From NCBI GenBank assembly GCA_965207675.1, contig CBDBMY010000006.1, positions 23,358-87,357 on the forward strand: a stretch of 64,000 bases of DNA, in the 5' to 3' direction. Of this stretch, positions 31,638 through 49,730 are shown in pieces (the first letter of the stretch is position 1; each line of letters begins with the position of its first letter). The position numbers and the translations under genes are program-made. This DNA comes from Vicinamibacterales bacterium (GTDB lineage: Bacteria > Acidobacteriota > Vicinamibacteria > Vicinamibacterales > UBA8438). Under the pieces are notes generated by a model. The model saw only the letters and a program-made list of their open reading frames with translations, was not told the origin of the DNA and did no database searches.

Positions 31638-33172
31638 GCCAGATGTCGCCACTGCTGCATCACCTCGATGCCTTCTTCGAGCAGAACGCGGTCGCGCTCG
31701 GTGACGGCGGCATCCGGTGCCAGAAGCACGTTTCGCGCCTCGCCTGGCTCGAGCTTCAGCATGCCGCCGCCGAGCGGGTGCCCCTCGAGCTCGCAACTCA
31801 GCCGGCCGGCCGGCGAGCCCCACGCCGCCGAGAGCCCCGGTTCGGACATGCCCCCGTTGCCGAAGAGATCGGAACGGAAGTCGACCGCCAGAAAAGCGTT
31901 CGTGCACGTGCACCCGCCACGGTTCACGGCCAACGCCGGCGACCGTCCGCTCATGTACGTCAAGACGAAGGCGGGACGCCGCACGTCGGGAACCGTGTAC
32001 CACGGCGTGCGGTTGCGGCACTTGTAGGAGGCCCGGGCCTGCCGGCCCTCCGCCGTGTCCAGATACGCGCGGACGGCGCCCGGCACCTGGGCGCCCGGCG
32101 GGATGCGCAGAAGGAACACGGGTTCGTCCTTCTCGACCCAGCGCTCGATGTCGGCGTCGTCGACCACCGCGCCGGCGAGGTAACGGCTGTTGCGGATGGA
32201 CGGCACGAGGAACTCGTCGGGTATCGCGAAACGCCGCACGTCGGACGGGCGCAGATGGAAGAACCCGTTGGCGCCGCTGACGTACCCGATGCCGACCTGG
32301 GCGATCTGTCCCAGGCGCACCGCGTCCGGCTCGGTCCCCATGCGCTCGTAGAGCCTGCGAACGCGCGGCGGCAGCAGGAAGGGCCGCAGCCGGCGGCGCC
32401 ATCCGACCCGCCAGGCCTCGACGTCGATCTCCTCCGACACGGGAGGGGGCATGACGCCCGGGTCGAACCGATCGACCCGCGACAGCCGTATGGCGCCGGA
32501 GCTCGCGCCCGCGTCGTCGGCCAGCAGCAGCCAGCAGTCTTCCGACAGCCTCGGGAAGATCTTGTCCCTGATGGCGACCAGGTGCACGGAACCGAAGTTG
32601 CCGACCAGGTACTCCACGAGCGGGCCGGCGTACGGCGCATGACCGATCTCGGCCGGCACGACGAAGGCCATCCGCCCGCCCGGGCGCAGCTTGCTGGCCG
32701 CCGCCACGATGAACGGCGCCCACGACGACGAGAGCCCGCTGAAGACGACGCCCAGGCGCCGGCAGTAGTCGAGCGCGGCCCGCCGGGTCGCCCCCGCGAA
32801 CCGCTGGTAGCGGATGAACGGGGGGTTGCCGGCGGCGCAGTCGAACCGTCGCCGGTCGGCCGCCGCCCACGTGAAGAAGTCGCCCTCGACGATTGCGGCT
32901 CGCGGCGCCCGCCCGCGCGACTCGGCGGCCGAGGCCGGGTCCCTCTCGACCCCGACGCTGTTCGGGTGGCGGGCCACGAAGCGGCCGTCGCCGCTCGACG
33001 GGTCTAGGAGCCGGTCGCCCGCGTCTCGAACCGCCCACCGCACCAGGGCGTCAGCCACCGCCTCCGGCGTGTAGTAGGCCCCGAGCGTCTTGTCTTCACG
33101 TGGCATCGGTTCCGACGTGGAACCTGCAAGACGCGGGCCGGATGGGGGCGCGACGGTCGAGGCGGGACGCAT
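31634..33172 (-). CDS. N6-adenine DNA methyltransferase (gamma-class, Eco57I/TaqI-like)
   Basis: Motif I LLDPSSGDGRF precedes motif IV AAGNPPFIRYQ. The N-terminal LGAYYTPEAVADALV is typical of the family. A long C-terminal region is the presumed target-recognition domain. Start taken as the ATG at 33172 (GAGG upstream); an alternative ATG is at 33106. Confidence 0.85.
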   Translation of the reverse strand: MRPASTVAPPSGPRLAGSTSEPMPREDKTLGAYYTPEAVADALVRWAVRDAGDRLLDPSSGDGRFVARHPNSVGVERDPASAAESRGRAPRAAIVEGDFFTWAAADRRRFDCAAGNPPFIRYQRFAGATRRAALDYCRRLGVVFSGLSSSWAPFIVAAASKLRPGGRMAFVVPAEIGHAPYAGPLVEYLVGNFGSVHLVAIRDKIFPRLSEDCWLLLADDAGASSGAIRLSRVDRFDPGVMPPPVSEEIDVEAWRVGWRRRLRPFLLPPRVRRLYERMGTEPDAVRLGQIAQVGIGYVSGANGFFHLRPSDVRRFAIPDEFLVPSIRNSRYLAGAVVDDADIERWVEKDEPVFLLRIPPGAQVPGAVRAYLDTAEGRQARASYKCRNRTPWYTVPDVRRPAFVLTYMSGRSPALAVNRGGCTCTNAFLAVDFRSDLFGNGGMSEPGLSAAWGSPAGRLSCELEGHPLGGGMLKLEPGEARNVLLAPDAAVTERDRVLLEEGIEVMQQWRHLA

Positions 33173-33276
33173 CAAGCCTCAGTGTACCAGCTACCGCGGG
33201 GACACGGTGTCGATGCAAAATGCTATATGCCACGTTCGATTTGTACAGCTCCGGAAACTGAGCGATGCCGTGCACC

Positions 33277-33525
33277 CTGGCCCGCCAAGCGTCGCCTTCG
33301 GCTCCGCTGGGCGCCCAACCAACCCGACAGGAGCCCGCGCCGTCCTACGGCAACTCCTCGCCCACCCATCGTCGCCTTCGGCTCCGCTGGGCGCCCAACC
33401 AACCCGACAGGAGTCCGCGCCGCTCACGGCGACTCCTCGCCCGCCCATCGTCGCCTTCGGCTCCGCTGGGCGCCCAACCAACCCGACAGGAAGTCCGTGC
33501 CGCTCTTGCGGCGCGGACTCCTACG
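33277..33525. repeat. three tandem copies (about 79-85 bp) of intergenic element family B
   Basis: Units at about 33277, 33361 and 33440: ccc(a/g)cccatcgtcgccttcggctccgctgggcgcccaaccaacccgacagga(g)(t/c)ccg(c/t)gccg..cggc..actcc. Each ends in a hairpin with a stem of about 10-12 bp. The array fills the gap between the DUF1501 stop and the methyltransferase start. Confidence 0.85.
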
Positions 33526-34981
33526 CCAAAATCCCCCGGATCGGGTGCCCGTCCACGTCGGCCAGCCGGAAGTCCCGGCCGCCGAAGCGGTAGGTCAGGT
33601 TGCGGTAGTCGAGGCCCAGCAGGGTGAGCACCGTCGCGTGGAGGTCGCGGACGGTGTGCGAGTTCTCGACCACGCGGTAGCCGTACTCGTCGGTCTGCCC
33701 GTAGATGAAGCCCTTCTTCAGGCCGCCGCCGGCCAGCCAGAGGCTGAAGCCGTAGGGGTTGTGGTCGCGGCCGTTGGTGCCCTGCACGAACGGGGTCCGG
33801 CCGAACTCGCCCGAGAAGATGACGAGGGTCTCGTCGAGGAGGCCGCGGGCGCGGAGGTCCTTGACGAGGCCGGCCACGGGCTGGTCGACGGTGAGGGCGT
33901 TGGCGGTGTGGCCCTCGATCAGCTTGGTGTGCTGGTCCCACGGGTTGGCGGCCTGCCCCATGCCGTCGGTGCCCACCATGGTGAGCTCGACGAAGCGGAC
34001 GCCGCGCTCGACGAGGCGGCGGGCCACCAGGCACTGGCGCCCGTAGGCGGCGGTCGACGCGTTGGGCGAGTCCATGCCGTAGAGGCGCTTGGTGGCCTCG
34101 GTCTCGCCCGCGAGGTCGACGAGCTCGGGCACCGCGGTCTGCATGCGATAGGCGATCTCGTAGTTGTCGATGGCCGCCTCGACCTGTCGGTCGCCGCCGA
34201 TGCGGTCGACGAAGGCGGCGTCGAGGTCGCCGATGAGGCCCAGGCGGCCCCGCTGCTGCCGGTCCGTCTCGCGGGGCTGCACGTTGCTGAGGGGCTCGGC
34301 GTTCTCGGGATAGAGCATCGACCCCTGGTGGACCGCGGGCAGGAAGCCGTTGCCGAAGATGTTGATCCCGCCCAGGGGGATGCCGCCGCTGCCGAGGACC
34401 ACGAACCCCGGGAGGTTCTGGTTCTCGGTGCCGAGGCCGTAGGTCACCCACGCCCCCATGCTGGGGAAGCCGTTGAACGGCATGCCGCTGTGGAAGTAGA
34501 AGTTGGCCTGGGCGTGCTCCATGAACGGGGCGGTCATCGAGCGGATGACGGTCAGCTCGTCGGCCACGCCGCCGACGTGGGGGAAGAGCGCGCTCACCGG
34601 GATGCCGCTCTCGCCGTAGTGCGTGAACTCCCAGGGGCTCGGCCAGATGTTGCCGTCCTGGTTGAACATCGTCCGCTCGGTCTGGAACGGCATCGGCCGC
34701 CCCTCCTCGGCCGCCAGCCGCGGCTTGGGGTCGAACGAGTCGACGTGCGACAGTCCGCCGGACATGTAGCAGAAGATGACGTTCTTCACCTTCGGCGGGA
34801 AGTGCGGCGGCTTCGCGGCCAGCGGGCCGTCGCCCGCCTCCTGCGCGAGGCCCGCGTAGGACCGGTCGGCCATCAGGGCCGACAGCGCGAGCAGGCCGAA
34901 GCCGGTCGAGGTCTGGCGCAGCATCTCGCGGCGCGTCAGGAACGGGCTGGGAGCGGGGTGACGGCGTGGATCAAGGCACAT
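33521..34981 (-). CDS. DUF1501 (sulfatase-like) protein with a Tat-type signal
   Basis: Track ORF 33521..35140(-). Start at MCLDPRRHPAPSPFLTRREMLRQTSTGFGLLALSAL. Family blocks NVIFCYMSGGLSHVDSFDPKP and GRDHNPYGFSLWLAGGGLKKGFIYGQTDEYG. Confidence 0.85.
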   Translation of the reverse strand: MCLDPRRHPAPSPFLTRREMLRQTSTGFGLLALSALMADRSYAGLAQEAGDGPLAAKPPHFPPKVKNVIFCYMSGGLSHVDSFDPKPRLAAEEGRPMPFQTERTMFNQDGNIWPSPWEFTHYGESGIPVSALFPHVGGVADELTVIRSMTAPFMEHAQANFYFHSGMPFNGFPSMGAWVTYGLGTENQNLPGFVVLGSGGIPLGGINIFGNGFLPAVHQGSMLYPENAEPLSNVQPRETDRQQRGRLGLIGDLDAAFVDRIGGDRQVEAAIDNYEIAYRMQTAVPELVDLAGETEATKRLYGMDSPNASTAAYGRQCLVARRLVERGVRFVELTMVGTDGMGQAANPWDQHTKLIEGHTANALTVDQPVAGLVKDLRARGLLDETLVIFSGEFGRTPFVQGTNGRDHNPYGFSLWLAGGGLKKGFIYGQTDEYGYRVVENSHTVRDLHATVLTLLGLDYRNLTYRFGGRDFRLADVDGHPIRGILA

Positions 34982-35070
34982 GGAAAAACCTCGGCGCGAG
35001 GAGTCCGTAGCGCGACTTCCTGCCGGGCTGGACCCGCGTGGCGGCCGGAGCCACCGGCGACGCTCTCCGG

Positions 35071-35198
35071 GCTGGCCCGCCAATCGTCGCCGAACGCGAC
35101 CGCAAGGTGGCGCCACGGCCTCCGCCTGGCGCCCAACCAAAAGCCTACCGTGAGTCTGCGCCTCCCCCGGAGGCGGCGCCGTTCTGCGGCGCAGACCC
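35071..35198. repeat. single hybrid copy of intergenic elements (family B ends plus the family A gcgaccgcaaggt hairpin)
   Basis: gctggcccgccaatcgtcgcc..gcgaccgcaaggtggcgc..ctggcgcccaaccaa..gtctgcgcc(..cctcccccggagg..)ggcgcagac. It lies between the PSCyt/PSD gene stop and the DUF1501 start. Confidence 0.7.
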
Positions 35199-38100
35199 CT
35201 ACCGGACGAACAGGTATTCCTTCAGGTTGAACAAGCTGTGCGCGACGTCCTGCCACACCTGCGCGTCGTAGAGCAGCAGGTGCGGCGCGCTGCCGCGCTC
35301 GGCCGCTACCGCCTCGAGATAGCCGGCGACCCGCGCGCGCTCCGCGTCGGAAGGGGGGCGGGACAGCGCCTTGACGAACATGTGGTCGATGCGGCTCTCC
35401 ACCGACCCCGCCTCGCCCTCGGCGAGACGCCGCCCCCACTCGGCCGCCTGCCCGATGACGAACGGGCTGTTCAGCATGGTCAGCGACTGCGCGGGCACGT
35501 TGGTGGCGTCGCGCTGGCCGCGCGTCGTCGCCGGCCGCGGCAGGTCGAAGACGTCGAGGAACGGGTTGTGCGCGTTGCGGCGAATCTCCTGGTAGATGCT
35601 GCGGCGCCCGGCGCCGTCGACGGGGCCGTTGTTCGGATCGCCCTCCGTCAGCCCGTACCGCTCCGCGTAGCGCACCGGCACCGACGGGCCGAACATCGTC
35701 GGGTCGAGCCGGCCCGACACCGAGAGAATCGAGTCGCGGATGGCCTCGGCGTCGAGCCGCCGCAGGTTGGCGTGCTGCAGCAGCCGGTTCGACGGGTCGG
35801 CCGCGAGCGCCTCCGGCGACCCCTCGCTGCCCATGCGGTACGCCGCGGTCGACACGAGGCGCCGGACGAGCCGCTTCACCGAGTGGCCGTCGCCGGCGAA
35901 CTCCGCCGCGAGGTGGTCGAGCAGCGCCGGGTGCGTCGGGGGGTCGCCGAGCCGCCCGAAGTTGTCGACGGTGCGGACGAGGCCGTAGCCGAACAGGTGG
36001 CGCCACACGCGATTCACGGCGACACGCGCGGTCAGGGGGTTGTCGGGCGCGGTGATCGCGTCGGCGAGGCGCAGCCGGACCAAGCCGGCGTCCTCGTACC
36101 GCCGCGCGTCGAGCGCGGTGAGGAACGCCCGGGGCACCGCCTCGCCGAGGGACTTGTGGTTGCCGCGCACCAGCAGCGGGTGGTCCGGCGCCGCCTCCTC
36201 GACCACCCCGGGGGCGCGGCGCGCCACCGGCACGTCGCGCTCGAGCAGGCGGTAGCGCGCGGCCGGCGCGCGCAGGGCCACGAGGTCTTCCAGCGACCGC
36301 GGCAGCAGATCGGCGCGCACGAGCTCGTCGAGGAACGCCGCCTCGGTCTCGGTCAGCGCGCCGCCGCGCCAGCGGGACACGACATCGCCCACGCGCCGGC
36401 CGACGCGATCGGCCAGCTCGGCGCGCGAGCCGGGCGGCGGCCCGTCGCCGGCGAGCAGGTGCAGCACCGGCAGGGCGGTGCCGCGCGGCTCCGCCGCCTC
36501 GTCGTGGAACAGCACCCGGCCGACCCCGATCGACGAGCGGCCGTCGCCGCGTCGCACCGGCCGGTTCCGCTGCCGGCCGTCCTCGGGGTCGAGGGTGAAC
36601 TGCGTCACGTCGTCCTGGGTCGCGAACTCGATGTAGGCGCTGAACCCCTTCCAGAACGCGGCGTCCCACTGCGCCCACGTCATCCGATCCTGCTTCGGGC
36701 TGTAGCGCAGGTGGTAGATGCCGCCGCGCGGCACCGCGTAGTTCTCGATGATGAGGTTGGCGAAGCTGAGGTCGCCGCCGAGCACCCGGAAGCTGATGAA
36801 GTCGCTGTCGATGGTGAAGCGCGGCGTCTGGATGACCCCCGCGTGCTTCGACGACAGCAGGTGCGTGTAGGCGCCGCCGGGATAGATGCCGTTCAGCAGC
36901 CGGTCGCCCCGCCGCTCGATGGCGAACTCGCCCGGCGGCGAGGGCACGTCGGGGCGGCCGAGACCGTGACCGACCGTCGCGGCGTAGTCGGCGCCCGCGA
37001 GGTCCCAGGCGACCTCGAAGTGCTCCTGGTTGAACCGCTCGCGCTCGGCGAGCTCCGCCTCCCAGCGGGCGCGCAGCTCGTCCCACGCGCGCGGGAGGTC
37101 CGCGTCGTCGACCGCGGCCAGCTCGCGCCACGCGGCCAGCGCGCTCCCGTCTCGCTCGTCCTGCCTCGCGTCTCGTGCCGGGGCCGCCTCGCCGGATTCA
37201 GCCGCCTTCGCGTCCGCCTCTTCCAGCAGCCGCGCGCCAACCGTCCCCGCCGCGTCGAGCCAGGCGTCGGCCAGCCCGTCGCGTATCTCCTCCTTCAGCG
37301 CCGCCAGCGCGTCCCGGTTCGTCTCGAGCAGGGCCGGGTCGTCGATGGCGCGCTGGGTCGGCCGCGCGCCGTAGAGGGTGCCGAACAGCGAGTAGTAGTC
37401 CTTCTGGCTGATCGCGTCGAACTTGTGGTCGTGGCACCGGGCGCACGAGACAGTCAGGCCCATGAACGCCTTCGACACCACGTCGACCTGATTGTCCTGC
37501 CACTTGACCCGGTCCTCCCACGGGTCGACCGGCTGATAGCCGTGCTCGACGAGCCGGTAGTGGCCGGTGCCGATGATCGACTCGTTGGTCCGGGTCTCCG
37601 TGTCCAGCCGCGGCTCGGGCAGCAGGTCGCCGGCCACGTGCTCGCGAATCAACTGGTCGTAGGGCACGTCGCCGTTGAAGGCGCGGATCAGGTAGTCGCG
37701 GTAGCGCCACGCGAGGGGAATGTCGGGGTCGCCCTCGCTGCCGTGCGACTCGCTGTAGCGGAACAGGTCCATCCAGTGCCGCGCCCACCGCTCGCCGAAG
37801 TGGGGCGACGCGAGGTACCGGTCGACGAGGTTGGCGTAGGCGTCGGGCGACGGGTCGCCGACGAACCGCGCGATCTCGGCCGGCGTCGGCGGCAGCCCCC
37901 GCAGGTCGAACGACAGCCGGCGAATCAGCGTCCGGCGATCGACGGGCGGCGCCGGCTCGAGTTTCTCGGCCTCCAGGCGGGCGAGGATGAAACGGTCCTC
38001 CGCGCTCCGCGGCCACGCCTCGTCGGCGACGGCGGGCGGCTCGACCGTGTCGACCGGCTGCCACGCCCAGTGCTCGCGCCGGCGCTTGTCGAGGTCGAAC

Positions 38101-38528
38101 GGCTCGGACGGGTCCGGCGTGCCGGCGGCAGCCACTGCCGTCTCGGGCCACGGCGCGCCCATCTCGACCCAGGCGATCAGGCTCTCCACCTGCGCCGGTG
38201 CGAGGGCCCCGGTCGGCGGCATCAGCACCGGCCGCCCCTGCACCCGCTGCACGAGCGGGCTTGCCACGGGGTCGCCGGGCACGACTGCGGGCCCCGAGTC
38301 GCCCCCCGCGAGCAACCCGTCCCGGCTGTCGAGCCGCAGCCCCCCGAACGGCGTCTCCAAGGCCGGCCCGTGGCACTGAAGGCACTGCTCGGCGAGCAGC
38401 GGCCGGATCTCGGTCTCGAAGAACTCGACTTGCTCCGGGCCCGGTCCCCCCGGCTGAGCGCCGGCCCCGACTCCGGCGACCAGAGCGGCCGCCACGCTCA
38501 AGAGCGCCGCATTCGATCTGAGAGTCAT
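35199..38528 (-). CDS. PSCyt1/DUF1549/DUF1553 (PSD) multidomain protein, the usual partner of DUF1501
   Basis: Track ORF 35199..38567(-). Start at MTLRSNAALLSVAAALVAGVGAGAQ. Heme-binding-like CLQCHGP, DUF1549-type HFGERWARHWMDLFRYSESHG, DUF1553-type CARCHDHKFDAISQKDYYSLFG. Confidence 0.85.
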   Translation of the reverse strand: MTLRSNAALLSVAAALVAGVGAGAQPGGPGPEQVEFFETEIRPLLAEQCLQCHGPALETPFGGLRLDSRDGLLAGGDSGPAVVPGDPVASPLVQRVQGRPVLMPPTGALAPAQVESLIAWVEMGAPWPETAVAAAGTPDPSEPFDLDKRRREHWAWQPVDTVEPPAVADEAWPRSAEDRFILARLEAEKLEPAPPVDRRTLIRRLSFDLRGLPPTPAEIARFVGDPSPDAYANLVDRYLASPHFGERWARHWMDLFRYSESHGSEGDPDIPLAWRYRDYLIRAFNGDVPYDQLIREHVAGDLLPEPRLDTETRTNESIIGTGHYRLVEHGYQPVDPWEDRVKWQDNQVDVVSKAFMGLTVSCARCHDHKFDAISQKDYYSLFGTLYGARPTQRAIDDPALLETNRDALAALKEEIRDGLADAWLDAAGTVGARLLEEADAKAAESGEAAPARDARQDERDGSALAAWRELAAVDDADLPRAWDELRARWEAELAERERFNQEHFEVAWDLAGADYAATVGHGLGRPDVPSPPGEFAIERRGDRLLNGIYPGGAYTHLLSSKHAGVIQTPRFTIDSDFISFRVLGGDLSFANLIIENYAVPRGGIYHLRYSPKQDRMTWAQWDAAFWKGFSAYIEFATQDDVTQFTLDPEDGRQRNRPVRRGDGRSSIGVGRVLFHDEAAEPRGTALPVLHLLAGDGPPPGSRAELADRVGRRVGDVVSRWRGGALTETEAAFLDELVRADLLPRSLEDLVALRAPAARYRLLERDVPVARRAPGVVEEAAPDHPLLVRGNHKSLGEAVPRAFLTALDARRYEDAGLVRLRLADAITAPDNPLTARVAVNRVWRHLFGYGLVRTVDNFGRLGDPPTHPALLDHLAAEFAGDGHSVKRLVRRLVSTAAYRMGSEGSPEALAADPSNRLLQHANLRRLDAEAIRDSILSVSGRLDPTMFGPSVPVRYAERYGLTEGDPNNGPVDGAGRRSIYQEIRRNAHNPFLDVFDLPRPATTRGQRDATNVPAQSLTMLNSPFVIGQAAEWGRRLAEGEAGSVESRIDHMFVKALSRPPSDAERARVAGYLEAVAAERGSAPHLLLYDAQVWQDVAHSLFNLKEYLFVR

Positions 38529-38702
38529 CGTGCCCCGCACTTTAGCGCCGGGTTGACCCCGACGCAAGCGGCGGGACGCATCTCCACGCTACGCCGTCTT
38601 CGGCCCTGACGCGTGCCGACACCACCGTCCCGACGCGCACAGTCGGATCTCACGCATGCAGAGACGGTGTATGCTTTGTCACGATTCGTCTTGGATGGCG
38701 AC

Positions 38703-41700
38703 ATGAACGTGACCCCATTCCACTGCGGGCCCTTCGCGAACGAGAGCGAACGCACCGCATTCGAACATCTCAAGAACCGCATCGAGTCGTCGCTCGGCGG
38801 CGACGGCGACCGGTGGATTCTGCTGACCAACCTCACTTGGTCGGTCACGCACCAGTTCCAGGCGGACGAGATCGACGTTGTGGCCATCGGTCCGCCGGGC
38901 GTGCGCGTCATCGAGGTCAAGCACTGGTCGCGGCGATGGGTCGATGAGCACGCGGACCTCGTGGAACAGGAGGCGGACAAAGTCACGAACAAGGCCCGCA
39001 AGATCGGGACCACCTTGCGCAAGTCCGTACCGAACCTCGGCCGCGTGGACGGCGTGGTCCTGTTGACGCGCGAATCGCCGGACATCAAGGAGCTGGCCGG
39101 CCGGGTCATCAGGGGTGTGCGGTTCTGCACGCTGAAAGAGTGGCGCGAGGCCATCGACTTCGACGGGACACCAGCGCTGCGCCCGCAGGAGGTCGCCCTT
39201 CTCGGCCGTCGGCTGGAACCCAGGAGTGCTGTCGCCCTCGACGGCTCGCTCCGGCGGTTCGCCGGCTACGTCAACCTCGAACGGCGCACGCCCCCGGTCG
39301 AGCGGTTCCACCGCGTCTATCGGGGGGTCCACGCCACCCGCCAAGACAAGGTCGTTCTGCACCTCTACGACCTGTCGGCGAGCGATGCAGCGGACGCAGA
39401 AACGCGGGCCAGCCGGGAGTGCGAAGCCCTGCGTCGGCTGCAACTGCACACCTGGGCGCCGCGCGTACTCGACTCGTGGCAGCCGGCCCCCGGCTACGCG
39501 GGCGAGATGCACTTCTTCACCGTCACCGACCCGCTGGCCCCTGCCCTCGAGAAGCGCGCATCGGACCGGTCCTGGGACACCCCGGCGCGGCTGGCCTTCG
39601 CGCGGGCCGCGCTGGACGCCTTGGTCGAGCTGCATGGCGAGACGGTGGACGACGGACCGATCCTGCACCGCAACCTCACGCCGCAGACGGTCCTCGTCCG
39701 GCACGACAACACGCCGATCTTCACCGGATTCGAGCTGTCGAAGATTCCGTCCGAACGGAGCGTGGCGTCGGCGGGGCCGCCGACCGGAGAATGGCCGCCA
39801 TCGACGGCGCCGGAAGTGCGCGCGCAAGGACTGCACGCCGCGGACACCCGCTCGGACCGCTACGCGCTCTGCGCCAGCCTGCGCATCCTGTTCGAGGGCC
39901 GGCAAGACGACACGAGCCGCCAAGCCCTCGACGTGCTGGCTTCGGGCATGATGGACGATGCGTCGCAGCGTAGCGACCCGTCCGCGCTCGACGCGCGCCT
40001 GTCGGAGCTGCTCGGCGAGTCCCCGCCCGCCCCGCCGCCTCCGCCGGCGCGGTTCTGGACGGAGGACCAGATCGTCTCGTTCCGCGGCAGCCGGTATCGC
40101 GTGGTCGAACGACTCGGCGCCGGCGGGGTGGGCACGGCGTTCAAGGTCGTGCAGATCGACCGTGACGGGCAGGAGGAGGGAACCTACGTCGCCAAGGTGT
40201 GTCACGACGAAGAGGCGGGGCGCCGCGCCGTGGACGCCTACCGGCTGGCGCGGTCACACCTGCAGCACCAGGCCGTCTCCGGCATCTTCGAGGTGGCGTC
40301 GGCGTGGCGCGAGAACGAGTTCACGGCGCTCATGACCTGGGTCGACGGCTCGCCGCTGCGCGATTTCGCGGGGGTCCTGCCGCTCCTCGTGGACGACCTC
40401 GACGAGACCTCCGCCGACGCGCTGACCCTCTTCTGGCTACAGACGATGTGCAGGGCCCTGGACGTGCTGCACCGCAACGGGCTCGTGCACGGCGACGTCA
40501 ACCCCGGCAACCTCATCGTGTCGGGGCGCGACCTCGTGCTCACCGACTACGACTTCGTCTCGCGAATCGACGAGCCAATCGCCGCGCCCGGCGCCGTGCT
40601 CTACTGCTCGCCGTCCCACCAGGCGGGCCGGGCGGCCTCGCCTTCCGACGACCTGTACGCGCTGGCGGCCAGCTTCTTCCACGTGATGTTCGAGCACGAG
40701 CCGTTCCGCCACGACGGGACGCTGGCAAAGGAACGCGGCCTGAACTGGGAGGCCGTCGCCCCCGAACGGCGCGCCGAGTATCCGTCGGTGGCGGCGTTCC
40801 TCAGCCGGGCCACCCACCCCGATCCGGATGAGCGCTTCCATTCCGCGGCCGAGGGGCTGAAGGCCCTGGCGGCGGAGCCGCCCCCCTCGGCCGCAACCGT
40901 AGCACCGCCCGGTCAGGCGACCGTGCCGCCCGCAACCGCACTCGAAGCGTCAGGGACGGGCTCCGCGAGTCCCCCCGCGCCGTCGGCTCGCGCGGCAGCG
41001 ACGCCCGAGGCGCCGGACACGCGACCGGAGAGCCCTGGAGAGACTCCCGGCGTTCGTCCGCCTTCTCCCGGCGCGGCGCCGGATACGGGATCCGCAGGCC
41101 TCCCTGCATCGTCGGCCGCCGCGACATCATCCGCTCCCGAGCCGTCGGCGCCCCCAACCTCCGCCGCCGCGCCGCCCGAAGGCCGCCCCTCGCCGCGCGG
41201 GACGTCCGATCCGGCGGCCGTACGTCGCGAGCAGCGCGTCGAGTGGCTGCGCTGGCTGCTGCAGTCGTATCCAGGCTCGCGGTGGGGAAACCGGGAGACG
41301 CGGGGGCTCGATAGCGACTTCGCGGAGCAGACCTACGTCGAGACGCCGCTGGAGGCGGCGTTGTACGAGGACGTGCGGGGGCGCCGCATCCGGCTCATCG
41401 TGCTGTGCGGCAACGCCGGCGACGGGAAGACGGCACTGCTCCAGCATCTTGCCGCCGGGTTCGGCCTCGAACGCCGGGCGTCATCCGAGCGCGTTCTGGA
41501 AGGAACGACGGACGACGGCCTGGGTGTGCGGATGAACCTGGACGGCTCCGCGTCGTGGCGGGGGCGGTCGGCCGACGACCTGCTCGACGAGTTCCTGGCC
41601 CCGTTCCGGGACGGGCCGCCATCGGAGGATATCGCGCATCTGCTGGCCATAAACGACGGGCGCCTGCTGGAGTGGATCGAGCGGGTCGAGCGGCGGGACG

Positions 41701-43259
41701 GCGAGACTCCCCTCACGGAAGCGCTGTATGCCGCCCTGCAGCGGGTTCAGCAGGATCGGTGGGTGGAAACGCCCGTCGCCGAGCGAGACGAGCACGAACG
41801 GGAGGCGCGGAGGTCGCTCACCGATGAGGCCGCCAGCGTGGAGGCCGGCGCGCGAAACGAACGCGAGTACAAACTCGAGGACTTGACCGGGACGGGCGAT
41901 GGCGCTGCAGCAGATGACGCCGGCGATGCGGAAGAGAACGCCAACCTCCAGCCGGCTCCCGATGCCCACATTCGGTTCGTCAACCTCAATCAGCGGTCGC
42001 TCGTCGGCGGCGTGACCACCGATGGGACCCGCATCGAAACCGGTTTCCTGGAGAGCCTGGTGGACCGCCTGTACGGCGCCGGCCGGGCGCCGGAGATCTG
42101 GGCACCGTGCGCGACCTGCTCGGCGCAGGACCGCTGCGAAGTGTTCCGGGCGAATCGCCTGTTCGGGCCGGCCGGCCTCCCCGGGGCCGCCCCTGCGGAG
42201 GCGCGGTCCCGCGCGCGGGACCGGCTCTTCGAGGCGCTCCAGGCCGTCCACCTGCGCGGCGAGACCCACGTCACGGTACGCGAGCTGCGCGCGGCGCTCG
42301 TCTACATCCTGTTCGGGGTCCACTTCTGCGACGACTACCACGACGGCGCCATCGCGACGGGCCGCCGCCGGGTTCCAGACTACTGGGAGCCGTCCTTCGG
42401 TCCGTTTCAGGAGCCCGGTGCTCCGGCAGAGACCGCGCCGACCTCTCTGCCCTGGTGGGACCGGGCGTTCGATCCGGAGTCCCCGGCGCGGCAGGGGGCC
42501 GTGCTCGCGGACTTGGCGCGCTTCGACCCGGCGCTGGACGCGCATCCGCGTATCGACCGACACCTGATGCGCCCGACGCACGCCGGCGTCCGCCGGGGCG
42601 TGCCAGGGTTCCCCGACCTGGACCTCGCCTCGGCGCGGCGGCGCGCGTACTTCGAATGGCGCGAGCACGACATCGAGGCGCTCACCGGCGATCCGCACGC
42701 CCTCGACCTCGCCCACGGCCGTCACCTCCGACGGTTCCGCGGCTTGGCGGTGGACGATGAGGCGCGCGAAGCGGCTTGCGAAGCGCTCTGCGCCGGTATG
42801 GCCGGTCTGGCGACGCTGCCCCCGCAGGCCTACGACCGTCCGGGAGTCCCGTTGCGCATCACCCCCCGGACCCCGACGGAGACCGCGTTCTGGATCGAGA
42901 AGGCGGCGGATCGCTTCCACCTTGAAGCTGACCTGCCGCCCGCGGCCAGCGGGCTCGATCGCCTGCACCGTCAGGCGAGTCTCGTCTACCGCTACGCGGA
43001 CGGTCGCGAGGAACGTCTCCGCCTCGGCGCGGAGCTCTTCCACCTGCTGATGGAGCTGAGCGAGGGGTACCAATTGGGTGACGCCTCGACCGACGACACG
43101 TTCGCGCATCTGTCGATCTTCGTGCAACGGCTGGAGCGCGAGGACGACCGCCGGCTGCTCGCCTGGAACCCGATGCGTGACGACCGCATCTACGAAGTCG
43201 TGGCGGAGAGCGCTTCCGAAGACGGACAGCAACGATTGGCGCTTCAACCGCTGGAATGA
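38703..43259 (+). CDS. giant NERD - pseudokinase - Ser/Thr-type kinase - P-loop NTPase protein (gene A of the candidate system); the start may be GTG 38613
   Basis: Track ORF 38613..43259(+), with an internal ATG at 38703 preceded by GGATGG. NERD-like D..E.K block ADEIDVVAIGPPGVRVIEVKHW (about 38868-38927). Kinase-like domain 1 has HRNLTPQTVLV and no DFG Asp (about 39255-40020). Kinase domain 2 has LGAGGVGTAF, YVAKV, HGDVNPGNLIV and LTDYDF (40113-40553). A Pro/Ala/Ser linker follows (about 40875-41222), then Walker A LIVLCGNAGDGKTALL (41409-41432), LLAINDG, and C-x2-C-x5-C in WAPCATCSAQDRCEVF (42108-42137). Confidence 0.85.
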   Translation: MNVTPFHCGPFANESERTAFEHLKNRIESSLGGDGDRWILLTNLTWSVTHQFQADEIDVVAIGPPGVRVIEVKHWSRRWVDEHADLVEQEADKVTNKARKIGTTLRKSVPNLGRVDGVVLLTRESPDIKELAGRVIRGVRFCTLKEWREAIDFDGTPALRPQEVALLGRRLEPRSAVALDGSLRRFAGYVNLERRTPPVERFHRVYRGVHATRQDKVVLHLYDLSASDAADAETRASRECEALRRLQLHTWAPRVLDSWQPAPGYAGEMHFFTVTDPLAPALEKRASDRSWDTPARLAFARAALDALVELHGETVDDGPILHRNLTPQTVLVRHDNTPIFTGFELSKIPSERSVASAGPPTGEWPPSTAPEVRAQGLHAADTRSDRYALCASLRILFEGRQDDTSRQALDVLASGMMDDASQRSDPSALDARLSELLGESPPAPPPPPARFWTEDQIVSFRGSRYRVVERLGAGGVGTAFKVVQIDRDGQEEGTYVAKVCHDEEAGRRAVDAYRLARSHLQHQAVSGIFEVASAWRENEFTALMTWVDGSPLRDFAGVLPLLVDDLDETSADALTLFWLQTMCRALDVLHRNGLVHGDVNPGNLIVSGRDLVLTDYDFVSRIDEPIAAPGAVLYCSPSHQAGRAASPSDDLYALAASFFHVMFEHEPFRHDGTLAKERGLNWEAVAPERRAEYPSVAAFLSRATHPDPDERFHSAAEGLKALAAEPPPSAATVAPPGQATVPPATALEASGTGSASPPAPSARAAATPEAPDTRPESPGETPGVRPPSPGAAPDTGSAGLPASSAAATSSAPEPSAPPTSAAAPPEGRPSPRGTSDPAAVRREQRVEWLRWLLQSYPGSRWGNRETRGLDSDFAEQTYVETPLEAALYEDVRGRRIRLIVLCGNAGDGKTALLQHLAAGFGLERRASSERVLEGTTDDGLGVRMNLDGSASWRGRSADDLLDEFLAPFRDGPPSEDIAHLLAINDGRLLEWIERVERRDGETPLTEALYAALQRVQQDRWVETPVAERDEHEREARRSLTDEAASVEAGARNEREYKLEDLTGTGDGAAADDAGDAEENANLQPAPDAHIRFVNLNQRSLVGGVTTDGTRIETGFLESLVDRLYGAGRAPEIWAPCATCSAQDRCEVFRANRLFGPAGLPGAAPAEARSRARDRLFEALQAVHLRGETHVTVRELRAALVYILFGVHFCDDYHDGAIATGRRRVPDYWEPSFGPFQEPGAPAETAPTSLPWWDRAFDPESPARQGAVLADLARFDPALDAHPRIDRHLMRPTHAGVRRGVPGFPDLDLASARRRAYFEWREHDIEALTGDPHALDLAHGRHLRRFRGLAVDDEAREAACEALCAGMAGLATLPPQAYDRPGVPLRITPRTPTETAFWIEKAADRFHLEADLPPAASGLDRLHRQASLVYRYADGREERLRLGAELFHLLMELSEGYQLGDASTDDTFAHLSIFVQRLEREDDRRLLAWNPMRDDRIYEVVAESASEDGQQRLALQPLE

Positions 43260-43270: not shown

Positions 43271-45085
43271 GTGGCGCACGCTGATCGAGAGATCGTCGAG
43301 AACGCACTGTCGCCGGACCTGGTCAAGGAAGTCTGGACCGGCAACTACGACAAGGTGCTGCCGGTGACGTTCTTGGGATTCGAAATCTCTGCCATTCTCC
43401 CGGCCGTCCTCTATATGTTCCGCTTCGGCCACCGTCGCGGCGCCGGAGACTTCGTCTCGACATACGGCCCCGCATCCGGGACGCCGGCCCAGCGGCGTCG
43501 GGAGACCACCGTCGAGCGGATCGCTGCGAAGCTCGCTGAAATCGAGGAGCTGACCGGGTTCGAAGGCGAGGTCGAGAAGGCTGTTCTCGGTGACCTACTG
43601 CTCTGTTTCTGTCTCGAAAACGTCCGCCACCGACTGGGCCGGAACCAGCAGGTACAGCGTGTCGCGCCGACGCACTACTTGGCGAGTTGGATTGACTTGC
43701 CCTACAGCGTGGGCAACCTGCGCTTCGTGCCCGAGATGATTGTCGCCATGCTGGCGAATCGACGCGCGGGCGACTACGTCACCGCCAGTGATGAGATGGA
43801 CCGGACACGCTTCCCTGTCCTGAACCGCTACGAGGAAAACCCGTTGTTCCGGGCCTTCGGTCAAGGGGTCAGCCGCCGTAGCGGCTCGTCGAGCGATCTC
43901 GCGTCCGATTGCTTCGACGAGACAGACGATGCCGTGGGTCTGGATCAACTCCTGACAATTCGACTGGCCCAGCAACTGCGAGCCGCTCCGCAAAAGGTCA
44001 GGCCAAGCAAGACACAGGGCGCCGACGCGCACAAGATCTCCAATCAGCGCCCCATCGCCGAGGCCGCCGGCCGACGATTCTCGGACGACATTCGACGCTT
44101 CGTGCGCTCGTACGCCGATTCCGCGCCACGGCACGCCTTCGTGGACATGCTGGAGTCGTGCATCACGGTCGGACTGACCACCATTCTCACCAGCACCGTC
44201 GAGGTGTTGTTCCAGTGGGAGGCGACGGGCAGGGTGACGGATGTCGACGCACAACACCCGGCGTCGCTGTTCGTGGACTGCTCCTGCGGCGCCGACGATC
44301 GACTTCGGCTGCGGGCCGAGCAGTCGACAGACGACTTGATGCGGCGCCTCGAACGCGTTCCGGTGATTCTCATGACGCTGCGCTTGCTGGACTACGAGGC
44401 GCGCTCCCGGTCGCGAATCAAGTCGCAGCAGGTCACTACGCGACCGTACGCGACAGATTGGCTGAACCTGCTCGGGGATCTCCTCCACGACCGCCACCCC
44501 GAGGCGCAACGCGTCGCTATCCTCATCGAGGACAAGGCCGAGAAGTTGGCCGACAGAGTGGCCGACGACCATGAAGATGTGGCCAGCATGCTTCGCGATG
44601 ACGGACCACATCCGGTCTTTGGACTAGCCGGCGGACTGATGGCGCTGATGGGACGGCAGCCCCGCGAAGATCTCACCAAGATGGTCGATTCCAGCATGGC
44701 CGTCGGGCGCCCGAACGGGCTGGCCATCAAGCGCCCGACAACTCGCGGCAGCGGTCCGGGAACGCGCCGACGACGCGACGTTCGCGCACTCGTCTTCACC
44801 GATTCGACGCTCGAGTACCTCGTGCACCTCCATCTGCTGCCCGGCCCGAAGGGCGGCGACCGCGCCAGCATCGTCTCGTTACTGGACTTCCTCAGGGAAG
44901 ATTATGGCCTTCACATCGATACTGCGCCACCAGGCATGACGATCTCCAACGAGGTTCTGGGTCGCAACCGGGCGACACTGGAGCGGCGTTTGCGCGATCT
45001 CGGCCTCCTGATCGGCGTCAACGACGCCGAGCGGATGAAGCGGCTTACACCTCGCTTCGAGGTCGCCGAAGGGATTCTGGGGTGA
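43271..45085 (+). CDS. 604-aa protein of unknown function (gene B of the candidate system)
   Basis: GTG start 11 nt after the gene A stop, with GAGGTGAG upstream. Its stop overlaps the gene C start (GTGA). The amino-acid composition is protein-like and differs from the shadow frames. I recognise no catalytic motif. Confidence 0.8.
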   Translation: MAHADREIVENALSPDLVKEVWTGNYDKVLPVTFLGFEISAILPAVLYMFRFGHRRGAGDFVSTYGPASGTPAQRRRETTVERIAAKLAEIEELTGFEGEVEKAVLGDLLLCFCLENVRHRLGRNQQVQRVAPTHYLASWIDLPYSVGNLRFVPEMIVAMLANRRAGDYVTASDEMDRTRFPVLNRYEENPLFRAFGQGVSRRSGSSSDLASDCFDETDDAVGLDQLLTIRLAQQLRAAPQKVRPSKTQGADAHKISNQRPIAEAAGRRFSDDIRRFVRSYADSAPRHAFVDMLESCITVGLTTILTSTVEVLFQWEATGRVTDVDAQHPASLFVDCSCGADDRLRLRAEQSTDDLMRRLERVPVILMTLRLLDYEARSRSRIKSQQVTTRPYATDWLNLLGDLLHDRHPEAQRVAILIEDKAEKLADRVADDHEDVASMLRDDGPHPVFGLAGGLMALMGRQPREDLTKMVDSSMAVGRPNGLAIKRPTTRGSGPGTRRRRDVRALVFTDSTLEYLVHLHLLPGPKGGDRASIVSLLDFLREDYGLHIDTAPPGMTISNEVLGRNRATLERRLRDLGLLIGVNDAERMKRLTPRFEVAEGILG

Positions 45086-48000
45086 ACTGGACGGCACTGC
45101 ACGGGACGCTCCTCGGCCGCGCCTTCGAGAGCCTCCTGGGCCGGCCAGAACCCGGCGCGATGGCGTTCGTGCGCTGTCTGGCCCCGGACGTGGTGGCTGC
45201 GCTGGCGGCCGATGCGACCTTCGCGCCGAATGAGTGGCGCGTGTTGCGCGTGGCGGATACGGACGACGAGTCGAACAGGAGCACAGACGCGGACACGGCG
45301 GTCGAGCTGCGCGAGGCCAAGGGCGATGCGACGCTGCTGCTAGTCGACACAAGCCGGGCCGGCGCCGGCATGGACGGCATCTACAACGCCGCGCGCGAGG
45401 TCAACGAGACCGAACTGTTCGCGGACGCGAAGCGACTGGCGAGCATCGAGGTTGCGAACCGGCTATCACCCGTGCACCGTACCTATAGCGAACGCGCGAT
45501 CCGCAAAGCCCAGGGGGTGGGCCGCTACGCTAGCGTGTCGCCGTGGATGGAGTTCGACTTTCTCTGCCGCGTGGCCGCGCGCCAGCGCCATCCTGGCAAG
45601 TACCTGCATCTCCTTGGTCTGTGGCCGGTCGAGGTGGTGGCGGACGGAGACGTCGGTGCGGAACTCGCAGACTCGCGCCGGTTCGTGGATCGCCTGCTCG
45701 GCGTGGCCGCCGCCCGCCTCACCGTCCCTGCACGCATCGCATCGCTTCGGATCGCGGCAACCGGCGCACAGCGGCAGGATCTCGAACGCTTCCTTGAAGA
45801 AGCGGCGACCCGACCGTTGCGCGACGCCCTGCAGGCGCTCGCCGATCGACCGCATCTGTGGGTCGGGTCCCTGCCGGTCCACCCGCCCGACGACATCCAG
45901 TCCATCGAACTCACCTCTTGGCGCAACCGCAACGGGAAAATCGCCAGGTGGTCCGGGCTGATGGAACCGTCCGAGGCGGAGGCGCCGGAGCTCGTCCTGG
46001 ACCCTGACGCCCAGTCCGCGAAGGACTATACGAACCTGGAGGTCCGGTGGAAGACCCGGCCCGCCGACCTGGAGAAGAACGCCGTCGACTACCGCGTAGC
46101 GGTGCTGACGGACCAGGACGAGGAGCTGGCCTCCCGCGATGTCCGCCACTCCGCGCGCCAGCAGGAGAAGTGCCGGTTCAGCAACGACGACTTCTCGGCG
46201 CTGAGCGACGACGCCCTGCTGTCGGCCCGCGTGGTCGTCTCCGTCATCGGCCGCGACGCGATCGAGCGGCAGTCGAGCGAGGAGTTCGTCATCCGGTTCG
46301 GCGAGCGGCGTGATACGACGGCCGTCGGCGCGGGCCGGAAGGTCCGCACCTTCAGTGAAGGGCTCATCGAGGGCCCGGGACGAGAGATCGCGGCCGCGGT
46401 CCCCGAGAACCCCACCTGCATCGCCGCCGACGCGCGGGGCTTCGTCGTGCTGCGTCCGCCTGACGCGCGGCTCCGCAAGAGCTTCCGGGTGTTCCGCCCA
46501 CCGTTGATCCGCGACGTGGAGAGCGAGTGGACGAGTCGCCAGGGCGCGCTCGGACGCTGGCGGGTGCGCGTCCGGGCGTCGGGCGAACGGGCGGCGAGGC
46601 TGGAGTTCGTCCCGGCGGAGGGCGGAGACGGCACCGCGTGGGACCGCACCGTCGCCGCGAGCCGGCGGCTGGCGGAGCGGTTCCGGGACTCCGGCGGCGG
46701 AGTTGGCCAAGTCCACGACGACCAGTCCAGGTCGTTCGAGACGGTGAAGGGGTACGTGCTCGCGTGGACGGCGCTACTCGACGCCGGCGATCCGTCGCTC
46801 GCCATCTGCAACACGGTCGAAGTGCAGTCGCTGTCGGGGCAGACCATCGGCCTGATCGTGCTGCCGGCCCATCCCCTGCGCATCGCCTGGCTGGCCGCCT
46901 ACGACAACCTGCTGTTCCACGCCGTCTTCGACGAGGGACAGGCGCCCAGGCAGGTGAGGGACGAACTGCGGGGGCTCGACGGCGCGATGTTCCCCGCACT
47001 CCTGCCCAACCCGGCCGGTGGGGCGTTCGTCTTCGCCGACACGCTTGGGTTCCACGCGGTGGGCATGGTGCCCGATGACGACCGGGAGCCGAAGGCGGCG
47101 GTGGCGGTGCTCGCCCGCACCCTCGGCGAGAGCGAGTCGTCGGAGAGTGCACCCACCGTCGGCGAGCAGAGCGCTGCGGTCCTCGGGAACGAGATCGTCA
47201 AGTATCTCGAATGCCACGACTCGTCCCGCCTGTTGCGGTTGCACGCCCTCCGGGCCGGCGATGGTCTCACCGTCGCACGAGCCCTCGGCCGCGTGCACAA
47301 GCACTACGACGGGGACAGCGACGAGGCGGACGACGACGCGGCGGACATCGCGCGTGTCGAAACCGCAGCCGCCCCCGCCTTCACGCTCGACCTGTATCCA
47401 TCCCGCGAGCAGCGAACCATCGCGGGGCGGTTCATCGCGGAAGCGCGGGAGAAGCGGCGGAGCGGCGCCGGCGTTCTGACAACCGACGACCAATGGATGC
47501 TCGAATCGATCAACCTGCCCGGCGGCGTCGCCCTTCCCCGCCTCCGATGGGCGCGGAAGCAGAGCGGCGACCCGGAGACGGCGGCGCACCTTGCCGTCGC
47601 GTTCGACACGTTCGAGTCGCGCGTGGAGATCGACGCGGGGGACGCACCGGCCGCCCCGTTCCGGGCGTTCGGCCTGATGTCGTTCTTCGAGCGCGACTTC
47701 ACGGCAGCGCCGACCCCGTCCTGGCGCAGCGTCGTGCCGCGATCCGGCGGCGGCGAGAAGCACCCGTCGGAACGGGCCCACACCGAGCGGCTGGACCGCC
47801 TGGGCCAGCGGATCCTGGAGGCGGTCGCACGGCACGTCACCAAGGGTGACGGCGATCCGACTTCGCACACGGGATGGCGCTGGCCCTGGGGAGTCTCGAA
47901 CACGACCGGTGACGCGAATCACGGAGCCCCGGTACTTCGAACGACGATTCCACCCGAGAAAGCCGACAGCATCACGGAACTCCACCGCTTGTGCGACTGG

Positions 48001-49730
48001 GTGGTGACCCTGGATCGCAATGCTGGCATCGAGTACTTCGACTCGCCGCAGGACAATCGGGACATCTACGATGCCTACGTCATCGACTGCGTGCCGGAGC
48101 GCGAGGATCTCGGCTGCCTGCAGCTGATCACCTCGACCAGCAACATCGAGGAGGTGCACGACCTGCTCGACGAGGCACTGGTGCGACTGGGGCTCAGCCG
48201 CACGCGGCGGAACGCCGACTTCCTGCTGGAGCACCTCAAGTCGCTGAGCGGGCGGCTCGCCATCCGTCTGACCGGCAACGCCGCCCCGACGTCGGAACTG
48301 ATCGCGCTGGCCATCGCCCGCGCCAACTGCCGCCGGACGACGGAGAACGATGCCTGCTGGACGTCGCTGGAACGCGGCTTCCTCGTGCCGGTGGACGATG
48401 TGCGCGACCTGCTGCCGCCGCTGCAGGACGACGAACCCAACGGGGCCGCCGGCCGCGAGCGGCAAACCCGTCCAGACCTGATTCACGTCTCGACGCAGCC
48501 GCGCCGGGGACTCCTCTTCCGGTTCATCGAGGTGAAGCACCGGCGCCACCTGCGCCAAGCGCGTGCGCCGGAGCTGCTGCGCAGCGTCCAGGAACAAACC
48601 GCCGCGCTTCGCTCGCGCTGGTACGAGTGGTACGGCCACGAAGGCGTGTATTCAGCGTTCCGAGCGGTGCGGCGCGCCAAGCTGGCGCGGGTACTGCGCT
48701 TCTATGCGGACAAGGCGCACCGGCACGGTCTGCCGACGGAGCGATACGAGGAGATCGTCGCCGAGCTCGATCGCATGGTCGAGAAGGGCGCCGACTACGC
48801 CATTTTTACAGGCGCCGGACGGCGACCGCGGCTGGGTGTTCTGCCCCGAGTACGCAGGACAAGAGCCGCTGGAGATCTCGCCGGCCGGCTCCACGGTGCG
48901 GGTCTTCCTTTTCGGTCCCGGCCGATTGCCGGACGCCGACTTCCGTTTCGGGACGGACCCTACGGCGGCCGGAGCGGCCAGCCCGCCCGGGGGCGGGACC
49001 CCGGGCGACAAAGGGCGCGGGGAGACCGCCTCTTCTCACCGCGCGACGCCGACGGTCGCTGGAGGGGAGCGGACCGCCGGCGCAGCCACACCCGGTTCCG
49101 GCAGAGGGAGCAAAACCGCCGACGAAAGCGGATCCGGCTCGGACACATCCGATCCGAGCGGTCATGCCCCCTACGCAAGCGAAGTCACGCCGGACCCGGT
49201 GGACCCGACCGGCGGCGGAAGTGGATCCGGCCCGACCGCGACGGATCTGAACGGCGGTCGCGGTGAGGCATCGGGCGGCGACGGCAGCGCCGCGCCACGG
49301 CCCATGGTTCCCGGCGGCGACCCGACGCGCCCAGGGGGCGCCCCGGCCGCGGACGGCGTCGAGCCGGCCGAGGTCTCCACGCCGGTTCCCGCCATCACGC
49401 TGGGCGCGGACACTCTCACCGGCGCCGACGTGCAGTGGCCCCTGACCGTCAAGGGCAACCCCCACCTCCTCATCGGCGGCCTGCCCGGCATGGGCAAGAC
49501 GACCTGCCTGCTCAACCTGTGCCGGCAGATGGTGACCGCGGGCGTCCATCCGATCATCTTTTCCTACCACCAGGACATCGACGAGCGCCTGGTCGACTTG
49601 GTTGCCTCGGTGCGGTTCGTCGACTTCGACGGACTGGGCTTCAATCCGCTGACGGTGATGAACGCTGAATCCCCGCGAGCGTATCTCGATGTCGCCGGGT
49701 CGCTGCGTGACGTCTTCGGGGCCATCTTCC
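45082..49730 (+). pseudogene. 5' part (about 1550 codons) of gene C: large protein with a PD..EVK nuclease-like motif and the Walker A of a HerA/FtsK-type ATPase; broken by a 1-nt indel in a T5 run (48803-48807) and truncated by the IS21 insertion at 49730/49731
   Basis: Residues 1-1241 are in the frame of ORF 45082..49266. Sense then continues in the frame of ORF 48563..49759 (..LQAPDGDRGWVFCPEYAGQEPLEISPAGSTVRVFLFGPG..). PD-(D/E)XK-like block RPDLIHVSTQPRRGLLFRFIEVKHRRH (48472-48537). A Gly/Ser/Pro/Thr/Asp linker follows (about 48950-49387). Walker A LLIGGLPGMGKTTCLL (49475-49501). Confidence 0.8.

Follow-up and report, generated by a model that had tools for sequence, protein, structure and literature searches.

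DndF proteins with an N-terminal NERD domain followed by tandem inactive and active S/T/Y kinases have been described computationally (Rakesh, Aravind and Krishnan, NAR 2024, PMC10853773; restated in PMC12839542). In the same study, the DndF core has an Asn at the Walker B position and an ND motif, with a large helical lid, which may hold a Zn-binding insert, ahead of a C-terminal alpha+beta domain; the study gives a DndG size of 450-500 amino acids (aa), and describes stand-alone DndFGH cassettes in which a DndH of ~1,700 aa joins restriction endonuclease (REase) and HerA/FtsK domains, without Dnd modification genes (PMC10853773). A second point of comparison is the MADS system, where mad6, mad7, and mad8 are each required for defense (Maestri et al., 2023 preprint; 2024, Cell Host Microbe). 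A third is PglW of the type 2 BREX (Pgl) system, whose C-terminal half has an RNA polymerase (RNAP) alpha-CTD-like domain, three winged helix-turn-helix (wHTH) modules, and an inactive STAND region without Walker motifs (PMC12839542). PglW autophosphorylates, and in Escherichia coli it is toxic. The present analysis concerns gene A, at 38613-43259 on the + strand of a 64,000-nt stretch (“the window”; positions 23,358 to 87,357 of contig CBDBMY010000006.1, assembly GCA_965207675.1) from a Vicinamibacterales bacterium.

Gene A probably encodes subunit F of an anti-invader restriction cassette with three genes, F-G-H, which belongs to the DndFGH class and is a counterpart of Mad6-Mad7-Mad8 that has no methylase. 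Its architecture is already described, both as kinase-fused DndF and as the MAD6 protein of MADS, and novelty is limited to that extent. Domain content, motif integrity, gene order, and the tight spacing of the genes are matters of direct observation. A preliminary description of gene A, made from the sequence before any database search, had recognized its five parts; the known architecture, the membership in a three-gene cassette, and the disruption of the third gene had escaped it.

Reading frame and domains of gene A

The window has a G+C content of ~71%, and third-position GC (GC3) was used to separate real long open reading frames (ORFs) from shadow ORFs. The longest ORF of gene A (1548 aa) has a GC3 of 0.86 in its frame and is real coding sequence. 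An identical database protein (P0001) has 1518 aa, and conservation in the alignment begins at M31; the true start is therefore probably the ATG at 38703, which gives the 1518-aa form. A scan upstream of gene A for promoter and terminator consensus sequences found no sites. Two further + strand ORFs, at 33182-35230 and 35238-38609, were considered as upstream operon partners and rejected as shadow ORFs: the real genes opposite them, on the minus strand, encode DUF1501 and PSCyt/DUF1549/DUF1553 proteins, with a GC3 of 0.95. At least 933 homologues of gene A were found at E<1e-10, and 21 homologues from several phyla were aligned; this alignment is the basis of all statements on invariance below.

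By profile matches and conservation, gene A was confirmed as a genuine five-part protein, made up of a nuclease, a dead kinase, a live kinase, a linker, and a nucleotide-binding module. The first part, which the preliminary description had read as a NERD-type D..E.K block, is indeed matched by Pfam NERD (E 4.4e-8; residues 45-128, 38745-38996, + strand), a PD-(D/E)xK nuclease domain. The block itself, EIDVVAIG..VIEVKHW, occupies residues 86-105. D85, E86, D88, E101, and K103 are invariant, with D88, E101, and K103 as the catalytic residues.

The second part (residues ~232-467; 39306-40013, + strand) had been described as a kinase-like domain without catalytic residues, and the homologues bear this out. 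It is matched by several kinase models, including PADLOC PD-T4-6 (E 7e-9) and MkoA (E 4e-12) and the NCBIfam LanL kinase (E 6e-9), as well as by the NCBIfam MADS6 model. Matches to solved structures in the PDB are marginal, though every one is a kinase, with HRN aligned to the kinase HRD. HRN (352-354) replaces HRD and is invariant; the DFG motif is replaced by TGF, within a TGFE at 371-374 of which G372 and F373 are invariant; and the Lys of VAIK has given way to a His (H250) in at least 90% of the aligned homologues. Since all three catalytic motifs are replaced, the region is classed, on its sequence, as a pseudokinase.

The third part (residues 492-750; 40086-40862, + strand) is predicted to be an active Hanks-type, non-RD kinase. 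Pfam Pkinase matches residues 495-742 at E 1.8e-19, and solved PknA and PknB structures match at E 1e-14 to 1e-11. Its motifs are GAGGVG (GxGxxG) at 502-507, VAK at 526-528, HGDVNPGN at 626-633, and DYD at 645-647, of which GxGxxG, K528, HGD, N633, and DYD are invariant. The full motif set claimed earlier for this domain is thus present, as expected of an intact Ser/Thr kinase, and the profile (hidden Markov model, HMM) and PDB matches of both regions are to kinases, leaving no sign of some other fold in either.

The NERD-pseudokinase-kinase triad can apparently travel by itself. Another Vicinamibacterales sequence (OZ251506, locus L018, 9896-16531) has a 2211-aa ORF in which the triad, sharing 65% identity with residues 31-789 of gene A, is joined to a DEAD/Helicase_C helicase; genes for a MrfA Zn-binding-domain protein and a UvrD-like helicase follow this ORF. 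From this fusion the triad is taken to be a portable module.

The fourth part is a low-complexity Pro/Ala/Ser linker of ~115 aa (residues ~751-865; 40863-41207, + strand), present as described before. The alignment window of residues 745-875 holds 131 residues in gene A, against 40-70 in most other lineages. The linker is variable, with ~40-50 aa in most homologues, and its long form is an expansion specific to Vicinamibacterales. A second low-complexity insert, acidic and also lineage-specific, lies within the C-terminal module, in the region of its helical lid (residues ~1049-1117).

The C-terminal module (residues 866-1548; 41208-43256, + strand) had been described as a nucleoside triphosphatase (NTPase) with a CxxCx5C cluster and with a motor or switch function. 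The first half of this stands. A Walker A sequence (GNAGDGKT, 933-940) and NLDG (975-978, within MNLDG) are invariant in 21 of 21 sequences, as is the N-D-G of a Walker-B-like LLAINDG (1010-1016), in which Asn-Asp occupies the place of the usual Walker B aspartate. The cysteine cluster (1166-1175), within WAPCATCSAQDRC at residues 1163-1175, has all three of its cysteines (C1166, C1169, C1175) invariant. The motor does not stand: the module appears to be a derived P-loop-kinase-like one.

PADLOC models place it with SspF (E 1.7e-12) and DndF (E 7.5e-6; three DndF models match), with no other ATPase family matched. A search with the module against 1.84 billion representative sequences gave 618 clusters (50% identity) at E<=1e-3. 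All ten relatives scanned, among them proteins of stand-alone size (526-637 aa), match the same models, at E 1e-12 to 1e-19 for SspF and 1e-5 to 1e-8 for DndF, with up to ~300 profile positions covered; for two of the stand-alone-sized relatives NCBIfam DptF (TIGR03238) is the top match, at 25.1 and 22.8 bits against a 50-bit cutoff. An AlphaFold2 (AF2) model of the module (predicted local distance difference test score, pLDDT, 73; predicted template modeling score, pTM, 0.71) has a helical N-terminal extension, a P-loop core, a long helical lid carrying the Cys cluster, and an alpha+beta domain, which is the order published for DndF (PMC10853773). In the numbering of the module, at least 12 helices lie at residues 156-548 and the alpha+beta region at 552-688, and the three invariant Cys are in the model. 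By the strand positions of the model, the conserved N-D falls at a strand end. Foldseek against the PDB, which holds no DndF structure, gave weak matches to the P-loop proteins TsaE/YdiB and none for the remainder; the lack of a match for the alpha+beta domain agrees with the report that this domain has no structural relatives (PMC10853773).

The C-terminal ~680 aa are thus best classed, from profiles and model, as a distant homologue of the DndF/SspF type and not as a DptF equivalog; of the two relatives suggested earlier for this region, DptF and the C-terminal part of PglW, it is the DptF/SspF type that PADLOC and NCBIfam support. The gene A protein shares with canonical DptF/DndF and SspF the P-loop and lid region. 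Those proteins differ from it in having ~500-600 aa and no nuclease or kinase domains, and in being tied functionally to dnd/ssp phosphorothioate modification; no dnd or ssp modification genes were found among the genes of the window. The layout is exactly that of kinase-fused DndF (PMC10853773), down to the Asn in Walker B and the ND motif, and by the AF2 model it probably extends to the helical lid and the alpha+beta domain.

This module also bears on a rival reading, PglW orthology, in which gene A would belong to a type 2 BREX system with its partners encoded elsewhere. PglW has the same N-terminal triad and a similar overall size, and the NCBIfam PglW model does match the active kinase. 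That match (NF033442) reaches only 36.7 bits against a cutoff of 990, is confined to kinase 2, and led to rejection of orthology; the PADLOC PglW model gives no match at E<=1 to either the first 480 aa or the last 689 aa. Where PglW has wHTH modules and an inactive STAND region, gene A has an active-looking DndF-type P-loop, with its invariant Walker A and SspF/DndF homology. PglX, PglY/BrxC, PglZ, BrxD, and BrxHI are absent from the GC3-supported ORFs scanned across the window and from the related loci; the partners of gene A, unlike those of PglW, are the G and H genes described next. A routine PglW, which the preliminary description had allowed for, is therefore very improbable here.

The F-G-H cassette and its relation to MADS

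Gene A (F) is followed after 11 nt by G, which overlaps H by 4 nt. For comparison of gene order, 25 related genome loci were gathered. The order F-G-H is kept in 20 or more loci from at least 7 phyla, with Acidobacteriota, Planctomycetota, Chloroflexota, and Proteobacteria among the phyla that have the cassette. Its carriers include Vicinamibacterales, a Deltaproteobacteria metagenome-assembled genome (MAG), Latescibacterota, Thermodesulfobacteriota, Planctomycetaceae, Thioalkalivibrio, Salinarimonas, two Rhizobium plasmids, and further metagenomic contigs. Close homologues of gene A also occur in Chloroflexota (Kallotenue), Pyrinomonadaceae, and Entotheonellaceae. Cultured bacteria with intact cassettes include Rhizobium phaseoli R630 (on pRphaR630c), Kallotenue papyrolyticum, and Thioalkalivibrio sp. 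HK1. Across phyla, no adjoining gene is conserved besides F, G, and H, and no methylase or phosphorothioation gene lies within the cassette in any phylum examined. Between phyla, identity is 58-65% for all three proteins; conservation this high might point to a recent and wide horizontal spread of one successful design. A tblastn search of plasmids with G found the two Rhizobium cassettes only.

The G subunit (604 aa; 43271-45085, + strand) belongs to the MAD7 family and occupies the DndG position. NCBIfam MADS7 matches it over its full length (E 2.6e-33), PADLOC mad7 matches it too, and Pfam MAD7 (PF26611) matches one of its orthologues (L027). In the loci compared, a G of ~600 aa always directly follows F; it differs in this from the 450-500 aa reported for DndG (PMC10853773). 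In Thioalkalivibrio sp. HK1 (NZ_JFBG01000010; locus L019, 14215-21803), four tandem G paralogues with mutual identities of 56-86% lie between F and H, an arrangement that would fit G as a target-recognition or specificity subunit.

H is a single ORF of 1,640-1,790 aa at all intact loci other than the present one. It has the ~1,700 aa of the DndH in the published stand-alone cassettes and the same order of REase and then HerA/FtsK domains; the present cassette, too, is found apart from any genes for Dnd modification. A PD..ExK motif (RPDL..FIEVK, ~residues 1130-1152) is conserved, and the methylase catalytic motif [DNS]PP[YFWH] is absent in 48 of 48 H sequences. The best PDB match of the C-terminal HerA/FtsK domain is the DptH C-domain (7ES4), at E 1.8e-11 with the family profile and 5e-4 with one sequence. 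PADLOC HerA, DndH, and mad8 models also match H (mad8 at E 3e-7), and JGI labels one H homologue DptH.

A weak plasmid match to gene A led to a MADS operon on a Piscinibacter gummiphilus plasmid (NZ_CP136338; locus L028, 995-18061). Its eight genes encode a helix-turn-helix (HTH) protein, an N6 methylase, an AAA ATPase, proteins of 215 and 443 aa, a 1391-aa kinase, and proteins of 557 and 1858 aa. NCBI and UniRef give the name MAD6 to homologues that share 88-92% identity with the 1391-aa protein, among them Pseudomonas aeruginosa proteins of 1382-1386 aa. Gene A matches the 1391-aa protein in four colinear blocks covering all four modules (phmmer, E 5.6e-36), and the two genes that follow are matched by G (E 7e-12) and H (E 3e-26). 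In BLASTP against a P. aeruginosa MAD6 (P0444), GNAGDGKT, IN(D/E)G, and CxxCx5C are held in common.

Gene A is thus like MAD6 (as in the MADS of P. aeruginosa SMC4386) in its colinear NERD domain, HRN-type first kinase, second kinase, P-loop, and CxxCx5C, although identity is only ~23-36% per module; and as in MADS, F is followed by a Mad7 homologue (G) and then a Mad8 homologue (H). MADS has five more genes upstream, for an HTH regulator, an N6 methylase, an AAA ATPase, a DUF4276 protein (Mad4), and Mad5, which cassettes of the type in the window do not have in any phylum examined. Given the colinearity, the mandatory Mad6-7-8 core of MADS is read as the same F-G-H module, of which the cassette in the window would be a distant version without the Mad1-5 methylation module. 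No statement linking MADS to DndFGH was found in the literature searched, though this is not a claim that the link is unpublished.

Another cassette of this kind, from a Firmicute, lies on plasmid pKK1 of Bacillus thuringiensis (L029, 4108-18861). It encodes a kinase-F of 1352 aa, a G of 531 aa, and an H of 1728 aa, preceded by an extra hypothetical protein of 1308 aa; an HNH endonuclease gene and a helicase gene are nearby.

On the minus strand of the window, at 31634-33175, is a gene for an adenine DNA methyltransferase of the gamma class, Eco57I-like, which is matched by PADLOC MTase_II at E 3e-82 and weakly by mad2. No obvious nuclease gene adjoins it, and its synteny with the cassette is limited to Vicinamibacterales.

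The homology of F, G, and H to Mad6, Mad7, and Mad8 also admits a different reading, in which the three genes supply the restriction half of a MADS-like system that depends on methylation, with self DNA protected by an unlinked methylase. The Eco57I-like enzyme could serve as an example, being of the gamma adenine type, ~5.4 kb upstream, syntenic within Vicinamibacterales, and weakly mad2-like. It is, however, on the opposite strand, and separated from the cassette by the two housekeeping genes (DUF1501 and DUF1549/1553) with their GC3 of 0.95 and different codon usage. Loci from other phyla (L013, L015, L017, L019, L023, L026, and L027) have no accompanying methylase, and Mad1 to Mad5 are all missing from the cassette. 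Dependence on a methylase is on balance unlikely, if less so than PglW orthology.

Weight of the evidence and a proposed mechanism

Several observations weigh against placing the cassette in the DndFGH class beside Mad6-Mad7-Mad8. Scores on the equivalog models are low: gene A reaches 181 bits on MADS6 (cutoff 460) and 10.4 bits on DptF TIGR03238 (cutoff 50), G reaches 116 bits on MADS7 (cutoff 410), and the NCBIfam DptG and DptH models match none of the cassette proteins. Such scores mark a distant branch, not orthologous to the studied systems. A G subunit of the DndFGH class would be a triple-wHTH, DndG-like protein; neither the G profile nor a single G sequence found a relative in the PDB. 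The N-terminal part of an H of this class would hold an inactive SWI2/SNF2 C-domain, an HTH, two beta-sandwiches, TRDs, and an inactive methylase. AF2 modeled H residues 42-1241 poorly (pLDDT 52), with only the first ~370 residues confident, and the Foldseek matches of the model, to GH2 beta-sandwiches and the SF2 helicase Brr2, are weak. The alpha+beta domain of F is strongly conserved in this clade, yet that of the published DndF proteins is described as fast-evolving. The supplementary material searched for PMC10853773 gave no match to NERD or to the taxon names, and this clade may or may not be part of that data set. Finally, whatever mechanism goes beyond domain content we infer, using steps drawn from the DndFGH and MADS literature and from the autokinase activity of PglW.

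In the mechanism proposed for the F-G-H cassette, the three proteins would form one complex, with DNA recognized by G together with the N-terminal part of H. H would translocate along invader DNA and cleave it. The P-loop module of F would bind nucleotide and serve as the sensor or switch by which restriction is licensed, and the kinase pair may gate activity, either by autophosphorylation, as PglW autophosphorylates, or by phosphorylation of the partner proteins. The NERD domain could be a second, back-up nuclease. The sensor-effector role that the preliminary description proposed matches the suggestion in the literature for this architecture (PMC10853773).

A more far-reaching version can be offered only tentatively. 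F-G-H might be a self-contained, modification-independent restriction machine, whose two nucleases, NERD in F and PD..ExK in H, are gated by a P-loop that senses nucleotide and by the pseudokinase-kinase pair; MADS would then be the same machine with a methylation module added, and MADS and DndFGH would form one superfamily.

The clade is large, with the 933 or more close homologues and 618 clusters noted above, from many phyla. Standard tools do not flag the cassette as a defense system: NCBIfam Dpt and MADS models stay below threshold, and the Prokaryotic Genome Annotation Pipeline (PGAP) names its proteins “NERD domain-containing protein kinase family protein,” “hypothetical protein,” and “ATP-binding protein.” Placement beside Mad6-8 and DndFGH gives the clade a testable function. 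With three genes and no methylase, the cassette is also a simpler model for the roles of the kinase pair and the DndF-type P-loop in MADS, DndFGH, and PglW.

State of the cassette in this genome, and neighboring genes

In the window, H is a pseudogene, disrupted by both a frameshift and an insertion sequence. Its first piece (residues 1-1241; 45082-48804, + strand) was located by tblastn with the intact H of locus L001, to which it is 91% identical. A 1-nt insertion in a T-run near 48805, seen by tblastn and in DNA alignment with loci L001 and L002, shifts H into the +1 frame, where the second piece, the start of the HerA/FtsK domain, continues at 48812-49729 (+ strand). The third piece, at 52266-52973 (+ strand), is the C-terminal part of the HerA/FtsK ATPase and is 93% identical to residues 1546-1780 of the L001 H. 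Between the second and third pieces, splitting the HerA domain, lies an IS21-family insertion sequence (49731-52264, - strand) with terminal inverted repeats; it encodes IstB (49816-50571) and an IS21 transposase, IstA (50568-52193), both by NCBIfam models. It is flanked by a direct duplication, GGCCATCTTCC, at 49720-49730 and 52265-52275, and in the intact relatives L001 and L002 the GGCCATCTTCC target is single-copy. The insertion alone already disrupts H. An alternative annotation as two genes, a 1394-aa ORF (45082-49266) and a small Mad8/HerA gene, was rejected in view of the single ORF of 1,640-1,790 aa found elsewhere.

With H both frameshifted and split by IS21, the cassette is very probably non-functional in this genome, even though gene A is intact. 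In this genome, then, the locus is a decaying defense cassette and not a new kind of protein. Decayed copies also occur in other Vicinamibacterales: in L010, F is truncated to 703 aa, ending behind the kinase; in L022 a remnant of 175 aa is left; and in L024 a deletion joins F at residue ~116 to H at residue ~230.

The contrast between an intact gene A and a decayed H could mean that gene A works by itself, as a kinase-controlled abortive-infection toxin with the NERD domain as its nuclease, and has survived because it never needed G or H. Gene A is indeed full length, with all its catalytic residues, despite the disrupted H; its triad is portable, being found in the helicase fusion of L018, in PglW, and in Mokosh-like MkoA profiles; and PglW, as noted, is toxic in E. 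coli. F without G and H is found, however, only in the obviously degraded L010, L022, and L024. The target duplication of the IS21 element is still intact, and the disruption may be so recent that gene A has had no time to decay; in MADS, moreover, mad7 and mad8 are needed. An independent toxin seems improbable, somewhat more so than dependence on a methylase, and gene A is still best read as the F subunit of an F-G-H cassette that has lost H.

Directly downstream of the cassette are tandem genes for Uma2-family, putatively restriction-endonuclease-like, proteins (53033-53764 and 53805-54563, both - strand), which are syntenic in related Vicinamibacterales. Beyond them is a type IV toxin-antitoxin pair (54626-56061, - strand), with an AbiEii nucleotidyltransferase toxin at 54626-55417 and an AbiEi antitoxin at 55420-56061, followed by a gene for an S15 peptidase with a C-terminal Uma2 domain (56175-58970, - strand). 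On the other side of gene A, a DUF4143/AAA_14 ATPase gene (28702-29931, + strand) lies in a stretch of lower GC3 (26-31 kb), and a SNF2/ResIII helicase gene (1-1800, - strand) is cut by the start of the window.

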